From the IMG/VR virus record IMGVR_UViG_2675903578_000013: a stretch of DNA of 5,475 nucleotides. The stretch is one strand, 5' to 3'. Of this stretch, positions 102-5,475 are shown piece by piece (the first letter of the stretch is position 1; every line of letters begins with the position of its first letter). Position numbers and translations under genes: made by a program. The notes below the pieces were generated by a model. The model ran no database searches and was not told the DNA's origin. It worked only from the letters and a program-made list of their open reading frames with translations. Origin of the DNA: a virus. Taxonomy: Duplodnaviria; Heunggongvirae; Uroviricota; Caudoviricetes.

Positions 102-203
102 AAGCCCGTATTTTACCGGGCTTATTCTGTGACAACCAGGATAAAGAGATTTACAGCATGGTCAGGGAGGTCAGCAGCCGCTTAGGCTGTCTATAGCGCG
201 GCG

Positions 204-274
204 ATTTTTTTGATACCGATTTGCATTTCATTTGATACCGCTGAAAAACGCCGATACGCAACTTATTTGATACT
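204..274. repeat. direct repeats of TTTGATAC(C/T): two copies of TTTGATACCG exactly 22 bp apart, a third TTTGATAC and a GATAC nearby
   Basis: TTTGATACCG at 209-218 and 231-240; TTTGATAC at 266-273; CCGATACG at 251-258. Read directly from the sequence. Confidence 0.5.
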
Positions 275-300
275 AAATCGGCGCTTTTCTTTTGAGTTTT
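244..300 (-). terminator. hairpin terminator downstream of mom, possibly bidirectional
   Basis: Inverted repeat CGCCGAT (249-255) / ATCGGCG (277-283) with a 21-nt loop. On the minus strand it is followed by TTTTT (complement of 244-248); on the plus strand by CTTTTCTTTTGAGTTTT (284-300). It lies 37 bp past the mom stop codon (320-322). The long loop makes it atypical. Confidence 0.4.
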
Positions 301-319
301 AGAATGAGTTTTTAAGCGT

Positions 320-1057
320 TCATTCACTCTCTTTCAAACCAGTTTTAACTGTTTGTGGTTTTGGGTAAGGCTGGACTTTGAATAGCTTTGTGTTAAGGCG
401 TTTTCTGGCTCTCTTGTCCAGAAACCGGATGTAACGAAACTGACGGAATTTATGAACACTGGCTCTGTCGATATTAGCCCGCAGATGTTCACCTCGCTGT
501 CCTCCTCGTTTGATTGCATTCTTGCAAATCTCGTGATACCACTCGCCATCAAGTTCATAGAATGTTGTTTCATGACTGCCTACATAATCAAAATTGCTTG
601 CCTGGTACACGACACCAAGACAGCCACAACGCTCATCTGCAAACGACTGAACCCACTGCACCTGCGGATAAAGTTGTCTGATTAGTTTGAGCGCGTAACT
701 GATTGCCCTTGATTCGGAGTTTCTCGGCATACAGTCATGCAGCCATAACCGGTTAAGCTCCATATATTCGCGGTTCTGCGTGCCAGTTACGACGCGTGCA
801 CCATTGTTTGGATTAAGGGCATAACCCCATTGCATTACGCCAACCAGCTCCCGTTCTGAAAATATGCCCAGATGAAGGTAGGAATTATTTACGAAACGAT
901 GGCTGTAATGTTTATTGACGACGACCAGCCGGGCCAGCCAGCAACTTATTGTCTCAACCCGTAACTCACGGGAGCCATAACCGACGATATTGTCGTTATA
1001 GTGAATAAGTTCAGGCGTGCTGATGATACGGGATGTAACTTGCTTTCTGTTCCCCAC
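320..1057 (-). CDS. mom: Mom-like DNA modification protein (anti-restriction adenine modification)
   Basis: The 310-aa open frame (320..1252) has its 5' end overlapping, in another frame, a gene for a Com-like zinc-finger protein, which is the arrangement of the phage Mu com-mom operon. I cannot reproduce the Mu Mom sequence from memory, so the family call rests mainly on this context. Start is uncertain: I place it at GTG 1057..1055, which has AAGGA about 9 nt upstream and overlaps the com 3' end by about 15 codons. The frame stays open up to GTG 1252 and ATG 1219, but those would overlap all of com. Stop codon TGA at 322..320. Confidence 0.65.
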
Positions 1058-1211
1058 GACAGGATTTCCTTGTGTATGTGGGGTGCTCTGTGGCGCTCTG
1101 AGATGTGATTTGATTGAGGGTTTTACAGCGCGGACATTTAACTTCCAGATAACTGAAGCTGGCTCGTGCCAGTAGCTTGTTACAATGTCGGCACCGTATG
1201 TTTCGATACAT
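1011..1211 (-). CDS. com: Com-like zinc-finger translational activator of mom
   Basis: ATG at 1211..1209 preceded by AGGAGG (1227..1222). The product [30 protein letters not shown]... has two CxxC pairs and closely matches my recollection of Mu Com (MKSIRCKNCNKLLFKADSFDHIEIRCPRCK...). The 66-aa size fits Mu Com at roughly 62 aa. The ORF-track entry (1011..1256) begins at a TTG; the internal ATG is the likely true start. Confidence 0.75.
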
Positions 1212-1300
1212 GGCCGCATAACCTCCTGCTTTGTTGTTGATATCTTTATCACTCAATCGATCGACAAAAACGATCGATTTGATTTATTTAATTGATACAA
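1212..1300 (-). promoter_or_regulatory. putative com/mom promoter and control region with clustered GATC (Dam) sites
   Basis: AT-rich region directly upstream of com. GATC at 1259-1262 and 1272-1275, both inside short palindromes (TCGATCGA, CGATCGAT), and a third at 1341-1344. In Mu, mom transcription depends on Dam methylation of GATC sites upstream of the promoter. I could not place -35/-10 hexamers confidently. Confidence 0.4.
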
Positions 1301-1467: not shown

Positions 1468-1761
1468 ATGGACAATCATGTAACGACGAGAAATCGAAAA
1501 ATGATTGAAAATGCGGAAATCTATAATGATTATTTTTCCGATTATTCAGATGCCTGCAAATACAGTTCGAGTGCGGGAGAGTTCATATGCTTCAACTTTT
1601 TTATTAAATCTTATGTTTTTCCTCCACAGCAAGAAGATGGAGGTGTGCCACCTCCTGAAATCACTTTGCACCGTATAGCCTCCGTCTCAATGATGGAGCA
1701 ACAGGCTAATGAGCTGTATAGCATTCTGGGAACGATTCTACAAAAGCGTGAATCGGACTAA
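1468..1761 (+). CDS. hypothetical protein (97 aa), divergent from com/mom
   Basis: ATG at 1468 preceded by AAGAGG at 5-nt spacing. A 97-codon open frame in AT-rich, stop-prone sequence. No family recognised; the C-terminal half (PPPEITLHRIASVSMMEQQANELYSILGTILQKRESD) looks protein-like. Confidence 0.45.
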   Translation: MDNHVTTRNRKMIENAEIYNDYFSDYSDACKYSSSAGEFICFNFFIKSYVFPPQQEDGGVPPPEITLHRIASVSMMEQQANELYSILGTILQKRESD

Positions 1762-1928: not shown

Positions 1929-2183
1929 TTACATCATGGTACTGTCAGTTCCGGGCTGAGCCGGGTCTGGTTGCTCTGGCTGCGCGTCGGTTTTCGGCTC
2001 ATTATCAGCATCACTGGCCGCAACTGCTGGCCCAATAAGTTTTGCCAGCACTTCATCAACGTAAGTGTCGATTTGTGCCTCAAAATCCTTGCGGACCTGC
2101 GCTTTCAGCAACTTATTTACTTCACCGGAATACAGTGCCTGTTTTACCAGGTCTTCAGTGACGGTGCCTTTAATTTCTGGCAT
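1929..2183 (-). CDS. hypothetical small acidic protein (84 aa)
   Basis: ATG at 2183..2181 with a strong AAGGAGG about 6 nt upstream. Product MPEIKGTVTEDLVKQALYSGEV... is strongly acidic with a Pro/Gln/Asp-rich C-terminal tail. It sits 35 bp downstream of the 60-aa gene, so the two are probably co-transcribed. Confidence 0.6.
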   Translation of the reverse strand: MPEIKGTVTEDLVKQALYSGEVNKLLKAQVRKDFEAQIDTYVDEVLAKLIGPAVAASDADNEPKTDAQPEQPDPAQPGTDSTMM

Positions 2184-2218: not shown

Positions 2219-2401
2219 TCAGGGCTGGGTCGGGTCTTTTGGGAGCGGAGTTACCTGCGCTGTTTTACTGAGTTTTTCAGCTGCTGCGTCCTCAATTTTG
2301 CGGCGAACATAATTTCTGATGGCCTTATAACCACCACTCACCAGATATAACGCACATACTGCCGTGCAGAAATACAATAAAATAAGCTGTAAAAATGTCA
2401 T
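2219..2401 (-). CDS. hypothetical small membrane protein (60 aa, one predicted N-terminal TM helix)
   Basis: ATG at 2401..2399 with GGGAGGG 3-4 nt upstream. Product MTFLQLILLYFCTAVCALYLVSGGYKAIRNYVRRKIEDAAAEKLSK... has a hydrophobic stretch (residues 3-24) followed by a charged segment. The ORF-track entry (2219..2413) starts at an upstream TTG. Confidence 0.55.
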   Translation of the reverse strand: MTFLQLILLYFCTAVCALYLVSGGYKAIRNYVRRKIEDAAAEKLSKTAQVTPLPKDPTQP

Positions 2402-2497
2402 TATCCCTCCCAATTATTGACATGGTGTTGACACCGGTAATATCTGTTAGGTAAAAAGGTGCACTGCATTTTTTGCTTTGGATATAACGATCTTTTT

Positions 2498-2545: not shown

Positions 2546-3723
2546 TTACGCGTTATTCACTTCCACCACGATACTGTCAATCAGTACCGGGTAAGTCGCA
2601 TTTTTAGTGATATCGGTCACGCGCAACTTGTCTGCCGTAAACGTGCCGACCGGAGACTGCGACAGCATGAATGGTGTCCCGTCCTTACCATCAATGACCG
2701 GCGTCACCTCAATACTGTTGTTACCGGCAAAACGGAAGCCCAGCGTATGCCATTCGTTATTAAATGCGCCGAATGACCCCAGCTTCGTGTTCTGCGCCGT
2801 GTTTCCTTTGTGATACATCACGTTAAGGTCTGTGGCATCGCTCTGTACGTAGAACGATGCCAGCAGGTTATGACCGGCATTTCCTTCCAGAGTAACCCCT
2901 TGCGGCAGGGCAGAAACCGGCCAGTACAGCGCCAGTGCGTACTGATTAGCCGTAAGCGCGCCATCGAGTTTAAAACGACAACTGACAAGACCACCTTTAC
3001 CCAGCAGGTCCGCACCATTACCAGCATCATGCTCAAGGTACCAGGGGGCTCTTCCTGTTTCCTTGGTCAGTTTCATTGCCTTACCCCCGCTGGCTCCGGC
3101 ATCATCCACGATTTGAGCCTTGCCACCTCCGGCAGCCCAACCCTGTGGTGTCAACCGTCCTTCAGACTCAGATGCCCGGTAAGCAAATAGCGTACTCATC
3201 GTCGTGGTGTCTGCGGGTGGCGTGGACGGTTTTGATGGTGTATCAGGTGACGGCTTCTCATCCGGTGGTGTCACGGTCTGCCCACGCATCAGTTCAGCCG
3301 TGCGCCCTGCATGGAGCATAATAGCTGAGGCCAGACGGTCTGAAATGACGCCCCTGCGTGCCCATGAGCTGAAATGGCTGTCACGCTGTGTCGAAACAAA
3401 ACTGCCCTGGGTTCGGGATGCTGCACCGTAATACCCGACAGCCACAATATCCGGGTCTTCCGCCGGAGCATTCGTTGGCGTGCTCTGTCCATTCTCATCC
3501 GTCAGGAACGGTACAAAGAAAATTTTCTGTGCTTCCTTGCCTTTGTAGCCACCGTATACTGCCTCATATTTATCGGTGCCAGCGTTTTTCCAGTAATACG
3601 TGGTATCACCGCAAATCCACGGCACCGTGGTGGCATTTCCACTCACGCACTGCGCAGCAAGCGGAGCCAGGTCAGTTCTGAACTGCTGAACCATGGCCGT
3701 GAATAAACTATTATGCTGCTGGC
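2546..3723 (-). CDS. large hypothetical protein, C-terminal 392 aa; the 5' part is hidden in the N-run
   Basis: Continuous open frame from the N-run edge (3723) to stop TAA at 2548..2546. The translation has a globular region with Cys/His-containing segments (VPWICGDTTYYWKNAG ... HFSSWARRGV ... IMLHAGRTAEL), then a Pro/Thr/Ser-rich linker (TPPDEKPSPDTPSKPSTPPADTTT), then a Gly/Asn/Thr-rich C-terminal domain of about 210 aa. No family recognised by eye. The ORF-track frame reaches 4036 through the N's. Confidence 0.6.
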
Positions 3724-4021
3724 NNNNNNNNNNNNNNNNNNNNNNNNNNNNNNNNNNNNNNNNNNNNNNNNNNNNNNNNNNNNNNNNNNNNNNNNNNNNN
3801 NNNNNNNNNNNNNNNNNNNNNNNNNNNNNNNNNNNNNNNNNNNNNNNNNNNNNNNNNNNNNNNNNNNNNNNNNNNNNNNNNNNNNNNNNNNNNNNNNNNN
3901 NNNNNNNNNNNNNNNNNNNNNNNNNNNNNNNNNNNNNNNNNNNNNNNNNNNNNNNNNNNNNNNNNNNNNNNNNNNNNNNNNNNNNNNNNNNNNNNNNNNN
4001 NNNNNNNNNNNNNNNNNNNNN
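3724..4021. other. run of 298 N (unresolved or masked sequence)
   Basis: Literal N characters in the input. Confidence 0.98.
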
Positions 4022-4676
4022 GCAGTTTTTTGGCAATATGCAACCCCTGACCGACAGTCCCGTACTGGCCTTTTGCCAGATCAGCTTTCGGGTGGTTTAT
4101 CCCGCTCATATCCTGAACATCATGCAGGCAGTGGTCTGCCGGAATGATGTCGTTGTATGTACACGACGTACCGTTGGGCGTTACCGTACTGCGGCGTGCC
4201 AGTTGCTTAATNNNNNNNNNNNNNNNNNNNNNNNNNNNNNNNNNNNNNNNNNNNNNNNNNNNNNNNNNNNNNNNNNNNNNNNNNNNNNNNNNNNNNNNNN
4301 NNNNNNNNNNNNNNNNNNNNNNNNNNNNNNNNNNNNNNNNNNNNNNNNNNNNNNNNNNNNNNNNNNNNNNNNNNNNNNNNNNNNNNNNNNNNNNNNNNNN
4401 NNNNNNNNNNNNNNNNNNNNNNNNNNNNNNNNNNNNNNNNNNNNNNNNNNNNNNNNNNNNNNNNNNNNNNNNNNNNNNNNNGGGATTACCGGATACCGGC
4501 ATTACCCATAATGGCTCTTTCGTGCTGAAGCGGATCACGCAGTCTGCGAAGGTGATCCCCCCTTTATTACCCGAAGGGCGGAAAGGGCTTTCAATAAATG
4601 CCACCGTGCCACCGGCAACCTTGACTGAAAACTCTCCGGGCATGGCGGAGAGCATTTTCCACTTGGAGTCTGACAT
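4022..4676 (-). CDS. hypothetical protein, N-terminal part (a separate upstream gene or the 5' part of the large ORF); interrupted by an N-run
   Basis: ATG at 4676..4674 begins MSDSKWKMLSAMPGEFSVKVAGGTVAFIESPFRPSGNKGGITFADCVIRFSTKEPLWVMPVSGNP (4482-4676). The same frame is open across the 63 codons of real sequence at 4022-4211, on the far side of the 270-nt N-run. After the second N-run this frame stops at 3711-3713 while a different frame is open, so the gene either ends inside 3724-4021 or the gap length is not exact. Weak Shine-Dalgarno. Confidence 0.45.
4212..4481. other. run of 270 N (unresolved or masked sequence)
   Basis: Literal N characters in the input. Confidence 0.98.
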
Positions 4677-4749
4677 CGTCTTTTCTGCCTGTTTCTGAAT
4701 TAAACAGAGTCAGAATAGCGACCGCTGAAAAATATGTGTTTTGCGGAAA

Positions 4750-4781
4750 TTCAAAAAAGCGTCACGGTACTTTTGGTGACG
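4750..4781 (-). terminator. rho-independent terminator of the invertase gene
   Basis: On the minus strand: CGTCAC (4781..4776), 10-nt loop, GTGACG (4765..4760), then CTTTTTTG (4759..4752). The hairpin overlaps the last codons and the stop codon of the invertase gene. Confidence 0.5.
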
Positions 4782-5334
4782 GAGCTGGTGAGGCAGGAAA
4801 ATAACGATAAAGGGTGGAAAGGCCAATATCAAATATCAGTGCGATTTGTTTACGGGACTCGCCATTAGCCAGCAAACGGGCGATTTGCTCCCGCTCTTTC
4901 TCTGTCAGTTTCTGAGGTCTGCCGCCATGACGCCCCTGAGCACGGGCAGCAGCAAGACCCGCGCGTGTACGTTCAATAATGAGTTCCCGCTCCATTTCCG
5001 CCAGCGCGCCCATTATATGGAAAAAGAAACGTCCCATGGGAGTGGATGTATCAATATTGTCCGTAATGCTGCGGAAGTTAACGCCGCGTTGCCGGAGTTC
5101 TTCTGTTAAAAGGACAAGGTGCTGCATACTGCGTCCAAGGCGATCCAGTTTCCAGACCAGCAGGGTATCCCCTGGCCGGAGTCGCTTTAATGCGCGTTTA
5201 AGTCCGGGACGCTCCCTTGTCTTACCGCTTATTCTGTCTTCGAAAAACAGCTCACATCCTGCACATTCCAGCGCATTTCTTTGTAGCGCCGTATTCTGGT
5301 CATTTGTTGACACCCTGATATACCCAATCAGCAT
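4762..5334 (-). CDS. pin: serine site-specific DNA invertase, Gin/Pin/Cin/Hin family
   Basis: 190-aa product MLIGYIRVSTNDQNTALQRNALECAGCELFFEDRISGKTRERPGLKRALKRL...GDTLLVWKLDRLGRSM...MGRFFFHIMGALAEMERELIIERTRAGLAAARAQGR...LSTLYRYF matches my recollection of Gin/Pin along its whole length, including the catalytic-serine N-terminus (RVSTNDQ) and the C-terminal HTH. ATG at 5334..5332 with AAGGAA upstream. The symbol is a family-level guess; it could equally be named gin or cin. Confidence 0.9.
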   Translation of the reverse strand: MLIGYIRVSTNDQNTALQRNALECAGCELFFEDRISGKTRERPGLKRALKRLRPGDTLLVWKLDRLGRSMQHLVLLTEELRQRGVNFRSITDNIDTSTPMGRFFFHIMGALAEMERELIIERTRAGLAAARAQGRHGGRPQKLTEKEREQIARLLANGESRKQIALIFDIGLSTLYRYFPASPAPSPKVP

Positions 5335-5399
5335 ACGATTTCCTTATTATAAAAAGCCGGAATTGTCGCATGAGGAATAAAACAGAGTTAATCCTGGCT

Positions 5400-5425
5400 T
5401 TCCTGAAAACCTCGGTTTACGGGAA
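5400..5425. other. 26-bp Gin/Pin-type recombination crossover site (gix/pix-like)
   Basis: TTCCTGAAAACC-TC-GGTTTACGGGAA: two imperfectly inverted 12-bp half-sites around a central dinucleotide. It is nearly identical to the Mu gix sequence as I remember it (TTCCTGTAAACCGAGGTTTTGGATAA and its complement). It lies 66 bp upstream of the invertase start, as gixR does relative to gin in Mu. Confidence 0.6.
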
Positions 5426-5475
5426 ACGGTAAACAGGGCGGCGAATGCTCTGCCATCGGACGGCACCGCCGTTGC
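5402..5475 (+). CDS. possible start-less variable C-terminal tail-fibre cassette beginning at the crossover site (fragment, continues beyond the right edge)
   Basis: Inference from Mu G-segment and e14 P-region architecture: the cassette next to the invertase-proximal site reads away from the invertase, on the opposite strand, and has no start codon of its own. Consistent with that, only one plus-strand frame is open from 5381 through the site to the window end (…FPENLGLRETVNRAANALPSDGTAVA) and it contains no start codon. The stretch is too short to confirm coding. Confidence 0.2.

Follow-up and report, generated by a model that had tools for sequence, protein, structure and literature searches.

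The DNA invertases Gin of phage Mu, Cin of P1 and P7, Hin of Salmonella and Pin of the e14 prophage belong to the Din family of small serine recombinases. In these proteins a resolvase catalytic domain at the N-terminus, whose catalytic serine is near residue 9-10, is joined to an HTH_7 DNA-binding domain at the C-terminus; their reaction depends on Fis and on negative supercoiling, and proceeds by a 2-bp staggered cut at the central dinucleotide of the crossover sites. The DNA analysed here, hereafter called the window, is a stretch of 5,475 nucleotides from a Caudoviricetes virus (IMG/VR record IMGVR_UViG_2675903578_000013). We read it as the right end of a Mu-like, transposable E. coli prophage that carries the invertase gene and the invertase-proximal site of a Gin/Hin-type switch, flipping a 1.3-kb tail-fibre segment, and we give this reading a probability of roughly 93%. 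The features of the window that belong to the switch are the following.

5400-5425, no strand: invertase-proximal 26-bp crossover site (gixR equivalent), TTCCTGAAAACC TC GGTTTACGGGAA, from the alignment with Mu gixR, copy counts and the comparison of junctions.
5400-5411: outer half-site, staying with the invertase in both orientations.
5412-5413, no strand: central dinucleotide TC, probable place of strand exchange and left limit of the invertible DNA, from the comparison of strains FORC_029 and NCCP 13983 (below) and from what is known of the family.
5414-5425: inner half-site, which inverts, swapping together with the downstream sequence.
5414-5475, plus strand: beginning (20 codons, GLRETVNRAANALPSDGTAV) of an alternative tail-fibre tip that has no start codon, is of the Sv' type and is linked to the assembly gene, by direct translation; also the inner repeat arm.
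4762-5334, minus strand: gene for a Gin-family serine DNA invertase of 190 aa, from the open reading frame (ORF), Pfam, PHROG, the identity to Mu Gin and P7 Cin, and the Fis-activation residues.
5298-5312, no strand: candidate proximal Fis site (GGTCATTTGTTGACA), nt 23-37 of the invertase gene, matching a degenerate Fis consensus.
5250-5264, no strand: candidate distal Fis site (GCTCACATCCTGCAC), matching the stricter consensus GNNYRNNWNNYRNNC and conserved in Mu gin and P7 cin.

The crossover site had been noticed earlier from the sequence, as a 26-bp gix-like element upstream of the invertase start as in Mu, and the comparison with Mu agrees. Aligned base for base, the site shares 21 of 26 positions with gixR and has the same central dinucleotide; its own half-sites are symmetric at 10 of 12 positions. 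It is separated by 65 bases from the ATG of the invertase gene, and the distance between crossover and ATG is 78 bp here versus 67 bp in Mu, the position being homologous. The 14-mer TCGGTTTACGGGAA, formed by the central dinucleotide and the inner half, has a single copy in the window (up to 2 mismatches allowed) where 0.04 are expected; together with the gixR alignment, this means that the site is no chance match. The same count bears out the earlier statement that the window holds no second site. Scanning the genome contigs for the crossover-site pattern AACSTCGGTTTACGGGAAACGGT gave 0 matches. As to the left limit of the segment, the preliminary description put it at 5426; it most probably is the central TC, 5412/5413, the placement on the dinucleotide itself resting on family knowledge.

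The partner site was found in other genomes. Positions 4482-5475 are 100% identical to a locus of E. coli JE86-ST05 (L001, a reference region of 24.8 kb), and a match of at least 99% is found in 20 complete genomes of E. coli. An inverted-repeat search in L001 returned a repeat of 86 nt, 93% complementary, with arms at 12706-12791 and 13953-14038. At the outer end of this repeat, at L001 14018-14043, lies the partner in inverted orientation, TTATCGATAACG-TC-GGTTTACGGGAA; its inner half and central TC are identical to those of the proximal site, and its outer half has diverged. The 14-mer TCGGTTTACGGGAA, again with up to 2 mismatches, is present in exactly two copies in the 24.8-kb region, inverted with respect to each other, versus 0.21 expected. 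Because the outer half has diverged, the partner escaped a search for the palindrome core (AAACCNNGGTTT, up to 1 mismatch). Genomes with identical DNA therefore have the pair of imperfectly palindromic 26-bp sites typical of the Din family, inverted relative to each other and with the same central dinucleotide. The site centres are 1,317 bp apart, and the partner takes the window-equivalent positions 6717-6742, about 1.24 kb beyond the right edge. It had been proposed that the invertible tail-fibre segment runs off this edge and that an inverted copy of the site be sought 1-4 kb further on; the copy is indeed there, 1.3 kb away.

The partner site falls inside codons 174-182 (FIDNVGLRE) of a 293-aa gene, S, whose product is "hypothetical" in the JE86-ST05 annotation and is a tail fibre by its match to PHROG 1833 (6.7e-141). 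The segment contains the last 116 codons of this expressed fibre, a convergent assembly gene (Caudo_TAP, 4.8e-19) and the start-less alternative tip of 119 codons. Positions 5414-5475 of the window are 100% identical to L001 12715-12776, where the reading frame continues into the 119-aa tip, followed by the tail-fibre assembly gene; in the window, the coding sequence of the tip is cut by the right edge. A promoter/terminator scan of 4650-5475 revealed no rightward promoter for the silent tip and the assembly gene. Exactly between the convergent stops of the fibre tip and the assembly gene, a GC-rich palindrome is found (AGAAGGCC GGAA GGCCTTCT, L001 13647-13682), which is plausibly a bidirectional terminator in the middle of the segment.

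The invertase is a member of the Din family, and its earlier assignment to the Gin/Pin type was correct. It contains the Resolvase (PF00239, 1.6e-51) and HTH_7 (PF02796, 4.9e-15) domains, matches PHROG 125 "DNA invertase" (1.9e-94), and can be aligned over its full length with the structures 4m6f/3uj3 of Mu Gin, RVSTNDQ motif included (phmmer, 2.5e-88), so that the small-serine-recombinase architecture of the family is present throughout. A tblastn comparison gives 74% identity with Gin of Mu and 73% with Cin of P7; with the invertase encoded by a Mu-like phage that sits within some Stx phages, the identity is 78%. The ORF is intact and identical across thousands of assemblies. Residues specific to Fis-dependent invertases are Gln151, Arg154 and Leu155 of Hin, together with basic residues of helix B at positions 47, 48 and 51 (PMC3798978). 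Q150, R153 and L154 of the present protein match the three Hin residues in a gap-free alignment, and its basic helix-B stretch, RPGLKRALKRL, is identical to that of Gin; the Fis-activation residues of the family are thus in place.

An extra Pro-rich tail (PASPAPSPKVP) had also been described after the helix-turn-helix of this protein. The alignment with Hin does not agree with this. Hin has a total length of 190 aa, the length found here, and Gin has 193 aa. In the present protein, the last 53 residues and the 52-residue DNA-binding peptide of Hin (1hcr) form a gap-free alignment, in which STLYRYFPAS is identical; the difference is one of composition only, PAPSPKVP replacing SIKKRMN of Hin. 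An additional C-terminal domain was rejected on the basis of this gap-free alignment and of the similar total lengths.

That the segment flips is seen directly in the genomes. FORC_043 carries the same prophage with the segment reversed, and its 296-aa fibre is followed by a co-directional assembly gene; the 293-aa and 296-aa fibres are identical to residue ~205 and divergent after it. Among closely matching complete genomes, a junction-spanning query retrieved 18 in the orientation of the window and 3 flipped. Both states are present among IMG/VR contigs (roughly 23 versus 15 Sc-side junctions), and both types of junction are common among the IMG/VR and NCBI loci. The most informative pair is made of two Korean isolates, FORC_029 and NCCP 13983, whose prophages are inserted at one and the same place and flanked by proteins of identical accession. 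When FORC_029 was inverted in silico between the central dinucleotides (1,319 bp) and compared to NCCP 13983, 0 mismatches were counted over 9,557 bases; without the inversion there were 819, all within the segment. In the four-way alignment of their junctions, the outer half-sites are fixed and everything inward of the first diagnostic base is exchanged. The exchange is confined to the 19 bp TCGGTTTACGGGAAACGGT (window 5412-5430), which start at the central TC. The segment inverts, then, with breakpoints at the sites, as Din-family segments do. From this clean inversion and from the occurrence of both orientations, we conclude that the switch works and is not decayed.

The surroundings of the switch are those of a Mu-like prophage. 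In the annotation of L001, genes for the tail sheath, tube, tape measure and a Mu-type baseplate precede that of the 293-aa protein; next come two genes of the opposite strand, for tail-fibre assembly and for a "partial phage tail protein", and after them a recombinase, DUF6645, DUF1378, DUF826, com, mom and host DNA. Upstream of S, the Pfam families Phage_Mu_Gp45, GP46, Baseplate_J and Phage_Mu_Gp48 correspond to baseplate genes of the Mu gp45/46/47/48 type. This is the Mu gene order (baseplate, S, segment, gin, com, mom, right end), with a block of cargo added between gin and com. The right end of the prophage is exactly base 192 of the window, and the same end, 5'-TATAGCGCGGCG, adjoins at least 18 different host sequences, as is the case for a phage that inserts nearly at random and keeps a constant, precise end. 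Read on the outward strand, this end (5'-TATAGCGCGGCGATTTTTTTGATACC...) starts with TA and so departs from the terminal TG...CA of Mu, a comparison that covered the dinucleotide at this end.

The following course of events would account for these observations. Dimers of the invertase would bind the two inverted 26-bp sites, the one at 5400-5425 and its partner 1,317 bp to the right in gene S, both would be cut at the central TC/GA dinucleotide, and the exchange of strands would flip the 1.3-kb segment. Such a flip would replace the last 116 aa of the 293-aa fibre by the 119-aa tip and bring in the assembly gene downstream of that tip. The receptor recognised by the phage, and hence its host, would probably change with it. 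Activation probably comes from the Fis protein of the host, which would occupy two sites within the initial 85 bp of the invertase gene.

As to these Fis sites, the centre of the proximal candidate is 107 bp from the crossover and the centres of the two are 48 bp apart. In the Hin enhancer the same spacing of 48 bp was reportedly described by Johnson et al. in 1987. The enhancer of cin, as given in the P7 record, spans nt 19-86 of the gene, and the homologous stretch here is 5249-5316; both candidate 15-mers lie inside it and are nearly invariant in Mu gin and P7 cin. In Hin, the proximal Fis site is about 100 bp from the crossover site (PMC3798978). Pyrimidine-purine steps at the +/-(3-4) positions have been stressed for Fis sites (PMC4784862), and both 15-mers have them. 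The strict Fis consensus is not enriched in the window (6 matches versus 9.8 expected), and coding constraint could explain the conservation of the two candidates. A search of 5230-5330 for Fis sites, as the preliminary description advised, thus yields two Fis-type sites at homologous positions, whereas their function as an enhancer is a matter of inference. Din-family switches have a recombinational enhancer with two Fis sites in cis, which in these phages lies within the 5' end of the invertase gene; the two candidates would form such an enhancer here.

Several points weigh against this reading. Only one site is visible in the window, and for everything to the right of 5475 the sequence used is that of other genomes with identical DNA rather than that of the source genome. 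The evidence on orientation comes from the comparison of assemblies, not from reads of one culture. One of the two orientations leaves the expressed fibre with a convergent assembly gene that is not co-transcribed with it, and Mu and P1 differ in this respect. A simple scan of 4650-5475 found no sigma-70-like promoter for the invertase gene. Finally, the loose Fis motif, like the strict one, is no commoner in the window than chance predicts (37 matches versus 41 expected), so that the enhancer relies on positional homology.

A rival reading is that the switch is decayed or fixed, the invertase and one site having survived in a locus whose segment no longer inverts. Beyond the single site of the window, this would fit the predominance of one orientation, shared by 18 of the 21 complete genomes and by all 10 places of another comparison, and the tips that are frameshifted or truncated in a few loci (105, 99, 41 and 36 aa; the 105-aa tip in L002/L053, that of 99 aa in L014, that of 36 aa in L022). 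Such tips mean that individual copies of the switch are decaying, though the switch of the family is functional. A fixed orientation, which had been considered from the outset, is not what the genomes contain, since both orientations are found, including in near-isogenic strains that are otherwise identical over 9.6 kb. The invertase ORF, intact and identical in thousands of assemblies, and the identity of the inner half and central dinucleotide at the two sites argue in the same direction, and we regard general decay as highly improbable.

The 86-nt inverted repeats might also recombine by homology, through RecA, and such recombination could by itself produce the inversions seen between strains. 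The arms are 93% identical over 86 nt, and some loci carry the same variant on both of them (L047 4605/5923; L039 2101/3527), which suggests gene conversion between the arms. Homologous exchange would, however, favour the 32-nt perfect run that lies deeper in the repeat. What is seen in the isogenic pair is an exchange within 19 bp adjoining the non-homologous outer half-sites, where the homology ends and the run of identity is shortest. Moreover, the first diagnostic base beyond the 19-mer, only 1 nt from its end, moves with the segment in every flipped locus of the FORC_029/NCCP 13983 lineage, as predicted by site-specific exchange at the central dinucleotide. A RecA origin of the inversions is accordingly very unlikely in our view.

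A Hin-type layout, in which the segment would include the invertase, or a switch controlling the left-hand genes (the esterase gene nanS-p and mom, described below) through a movable promoter, can practically be dismissed. In favour of such readings, the invertase gene points the same way as the left-hand genes, only 85 bp separate them, and part of the left region is masked in the window. In the unmasked identical reference, however, the whole 12.7 kb leftward of the proximal site, masked stretches included, contains no further site; the partner is on the opposite side, within the tail-fibre gene; and the succession invertase, NanS-p, com, mom does not vary between the two orientations. The Hin-type layout was thus rejected on the location of the partner in the tail-fibre gene, which leaves the invertase outside the segment, and a second site hidden in the N-masked stretches was rejected on its absence from the unmasked reference.

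The invertase-mediated switch of a tail-fibre segment being retained, one trait of it departs from the described cases. In every relative examined, the segment of 1.3-1.4 kb has a single assembly gene, linked to one tip only, where Mu has U and U' (L001 12701-14043, window-equivalent 5400-6742, and loci L005, L007, L010, L013, L017, L027, L028, L039 and L043). This arrangement is kept across at least 5 types of tip and down to 78% identity of the invertase. At least 2 of these types are unlinked to the assembly gene (116 and 126 aa) and at least 3 are linked to it (118, 119 and 121 aa), mostly as intact ORFs. Besides receptor specificity, inversion may then toggle between a fibre co-expressed with its chaperone and a fibre for which the chaperone gene is antisense to the late operon, the unlinked tips (116 and 126 aa) either folding without chaperone or representing a low-infectivity, "off" state. 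We put this forward as a tentative idea, and a somewhat doubtful one. If true, the prophage would have a two-state design of which no example is described in Mu, P1 or e14, the last of these having an assembly gene for each orientation. The asymmetry is the only feature of the switch that might repay follow-up.

The genes to the left of the invertase, whose identity had seemed puzzling, could be named, as follows.

2546-4676, minus strand: NanS-p-type prophage sialate 9-O-acetylesterase, outside the switch, from Pfam SASA and DUF6645 and from matches in the PDB.
2219-2413, minus strand: DUF1378 gene, from Pfam.
1929-2183, minus strand: DUF826 gene, from Pfam.
1468-1761, plus strand: 97-aa ORF between DUF826 and com, without Pfam or PHROG match.
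192-1256, minus strand, including the prophage end: com (~1011-1211) and mom (320 to ~1057), outside the switch, from Pfam Zn_ribbon_Com (1.3e-12) and Mom (1.6e-77).

The middle part of the esterase matches E. coli NanS (3pt5, 1.8e-117) and its C-terminus the carbohydrate-binding domain of NanS-p (6yp6, 7.1e-98); the protein is 63-68% identical to the products of the yjhS/nanS-p genes of many Stx phages. It has 684 aa in unmasked relatives. The copy in the window is interrupted by two N-masked runs, 3724-4021 (298 N) and 4212-4481 (270 N), 46 and 30 nt longer than the 252 and 240 nt of a reference otherwise 99.9-100% identical to the window, so that frames and distances across them are unreliable; the single gene of 684 aa shows as two out-of-frame ORFs. 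The spot of the 97-aa ORF is variable in relatives, which have an 86- or 97-aa version or a different ORF of 66 aa. As in Mu, com and mom overlap in different frames. Gene callers disagree on Mom, giving either 245 aa or an ORF of 299-310 aa that swallows the com region, and com is annotated as frameshifted in JE86-ST05.

The position and orientation of these genes are constant between both states of the switch, and the partner site is on the right; the earlier view that they stand outside the switch was correct, and they are unrelated cargo and late genes. The esterase, DUF1378 and DUF826 genes form a cassette between the invertase and com-mom of a Mu-like prophage. In lambdoid Stx phages, the trio NanS-p/DUF1378/DUF826 is located downstream of stx. 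A literature search found no paper pairing "NanS-p" with "Mu-like", and a broader one on invertible tail-fibre segments of Mu-like prophages returned only the description of SfMu, not this prophage family.

At the right end of the prophage, which is on the left in the window, the motif TTTGATAC(C) is repeated within the first 80 bp (~209-217, 231-239 and 265-272); these repeats may be transposase-binding sites. The host flank, 1-191, matches an IS66-family element, ISEc8 (tnpB/transposase region, 99% over 47-191, many copies), which indicates that in the source genome the Mu-like phage was inserted into an insertion sequence. At the other side, the edge at 5475 falls within the longest perfect stretch of the inverted repeat (5450-5481), and several IMG/VR contigs likewise end at most 150 bp from a site. 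The window would thus be a short-read contig delimited by repeats at both ends, the IS66-family element on the left and the inverted repeat on the right.

The window begins in an IS66-family element and ends in the inverted repeat of the switch, which is probably why draft assemblies break here. The "recombinase family protein" and the "partial phage tail protein pseudogene" of thousands of E. coli assemblies together form one working Gin-type switch, each being half of it, and the "incomplete" tail gene is a silent alternative tip, not a pseudogene. The probable host-range switch belongs to a widespread Mu-like prophage, and its importance is mainly for annotation. Phage biologists may find some interest in the single-chaperone layout and in the NanS-p cassette, typical of Stx phages, sitting between gin and com.

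Compared to the described switches, the closest is Gin and the G segment of Mu. The succession of baseplate genes, S, invertible segment, invertase, com, mom and right end is the same; the invertase is 74% identical and the site shares 21/26 positions with gixR, its centre, TC on the plus strand of the window, being GA in the Mu orientation. In both, the partner site is within the coding sequence of S, so that a constant N-terminus is joined to alternative C-termini. The differences are in size and content: a segment of 3 kb in Mu and 1.3 kb here, tips of ~320-335 aa versus 116-119 aa, two assembly genes, U and U', versus one, and a terminal 5'-TG versus 5'-TA. In addition, com starts 95 bp after gin in Mu, whereas a 3.4-kb block (NanS-p, DUF1378, DUF826 and the small ORF) is found between them here. 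With Cin and the C segment of P1/P7, the locus shares an invertase 73% identical and a conserved 5' coding region, which in cin carries the annotated enhancer (nt 19-86) and which includes both candidate Fis sites; there, however, cix overlaps the 3' end of cin, whereas the site is upstream of the invertase start here, and the element is a plasmid prophage instead of a transposable phage. With Hin and the H segment of Salmonella, the likeness is in the STLYRYFPAS motif, the DNA-binding region (53 versus 52 aa) and the distance from the site to the proximal Fis site (~107 versus ~100 bp); hin lies inside its segment and moves a promoter of flagellin genes, whereas here the invertase lies outside and coding ends are swapped. 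Pin and the P segment of e14 in E. coli K-12, and other prophage switches of the Din family, have the same general design of a serine invertase beside a short segment with alternative tail-fibre ends. The switch is a new case of the well-known Gin/Hin/Cin/Pin family, in the position of the G segment of Mu.

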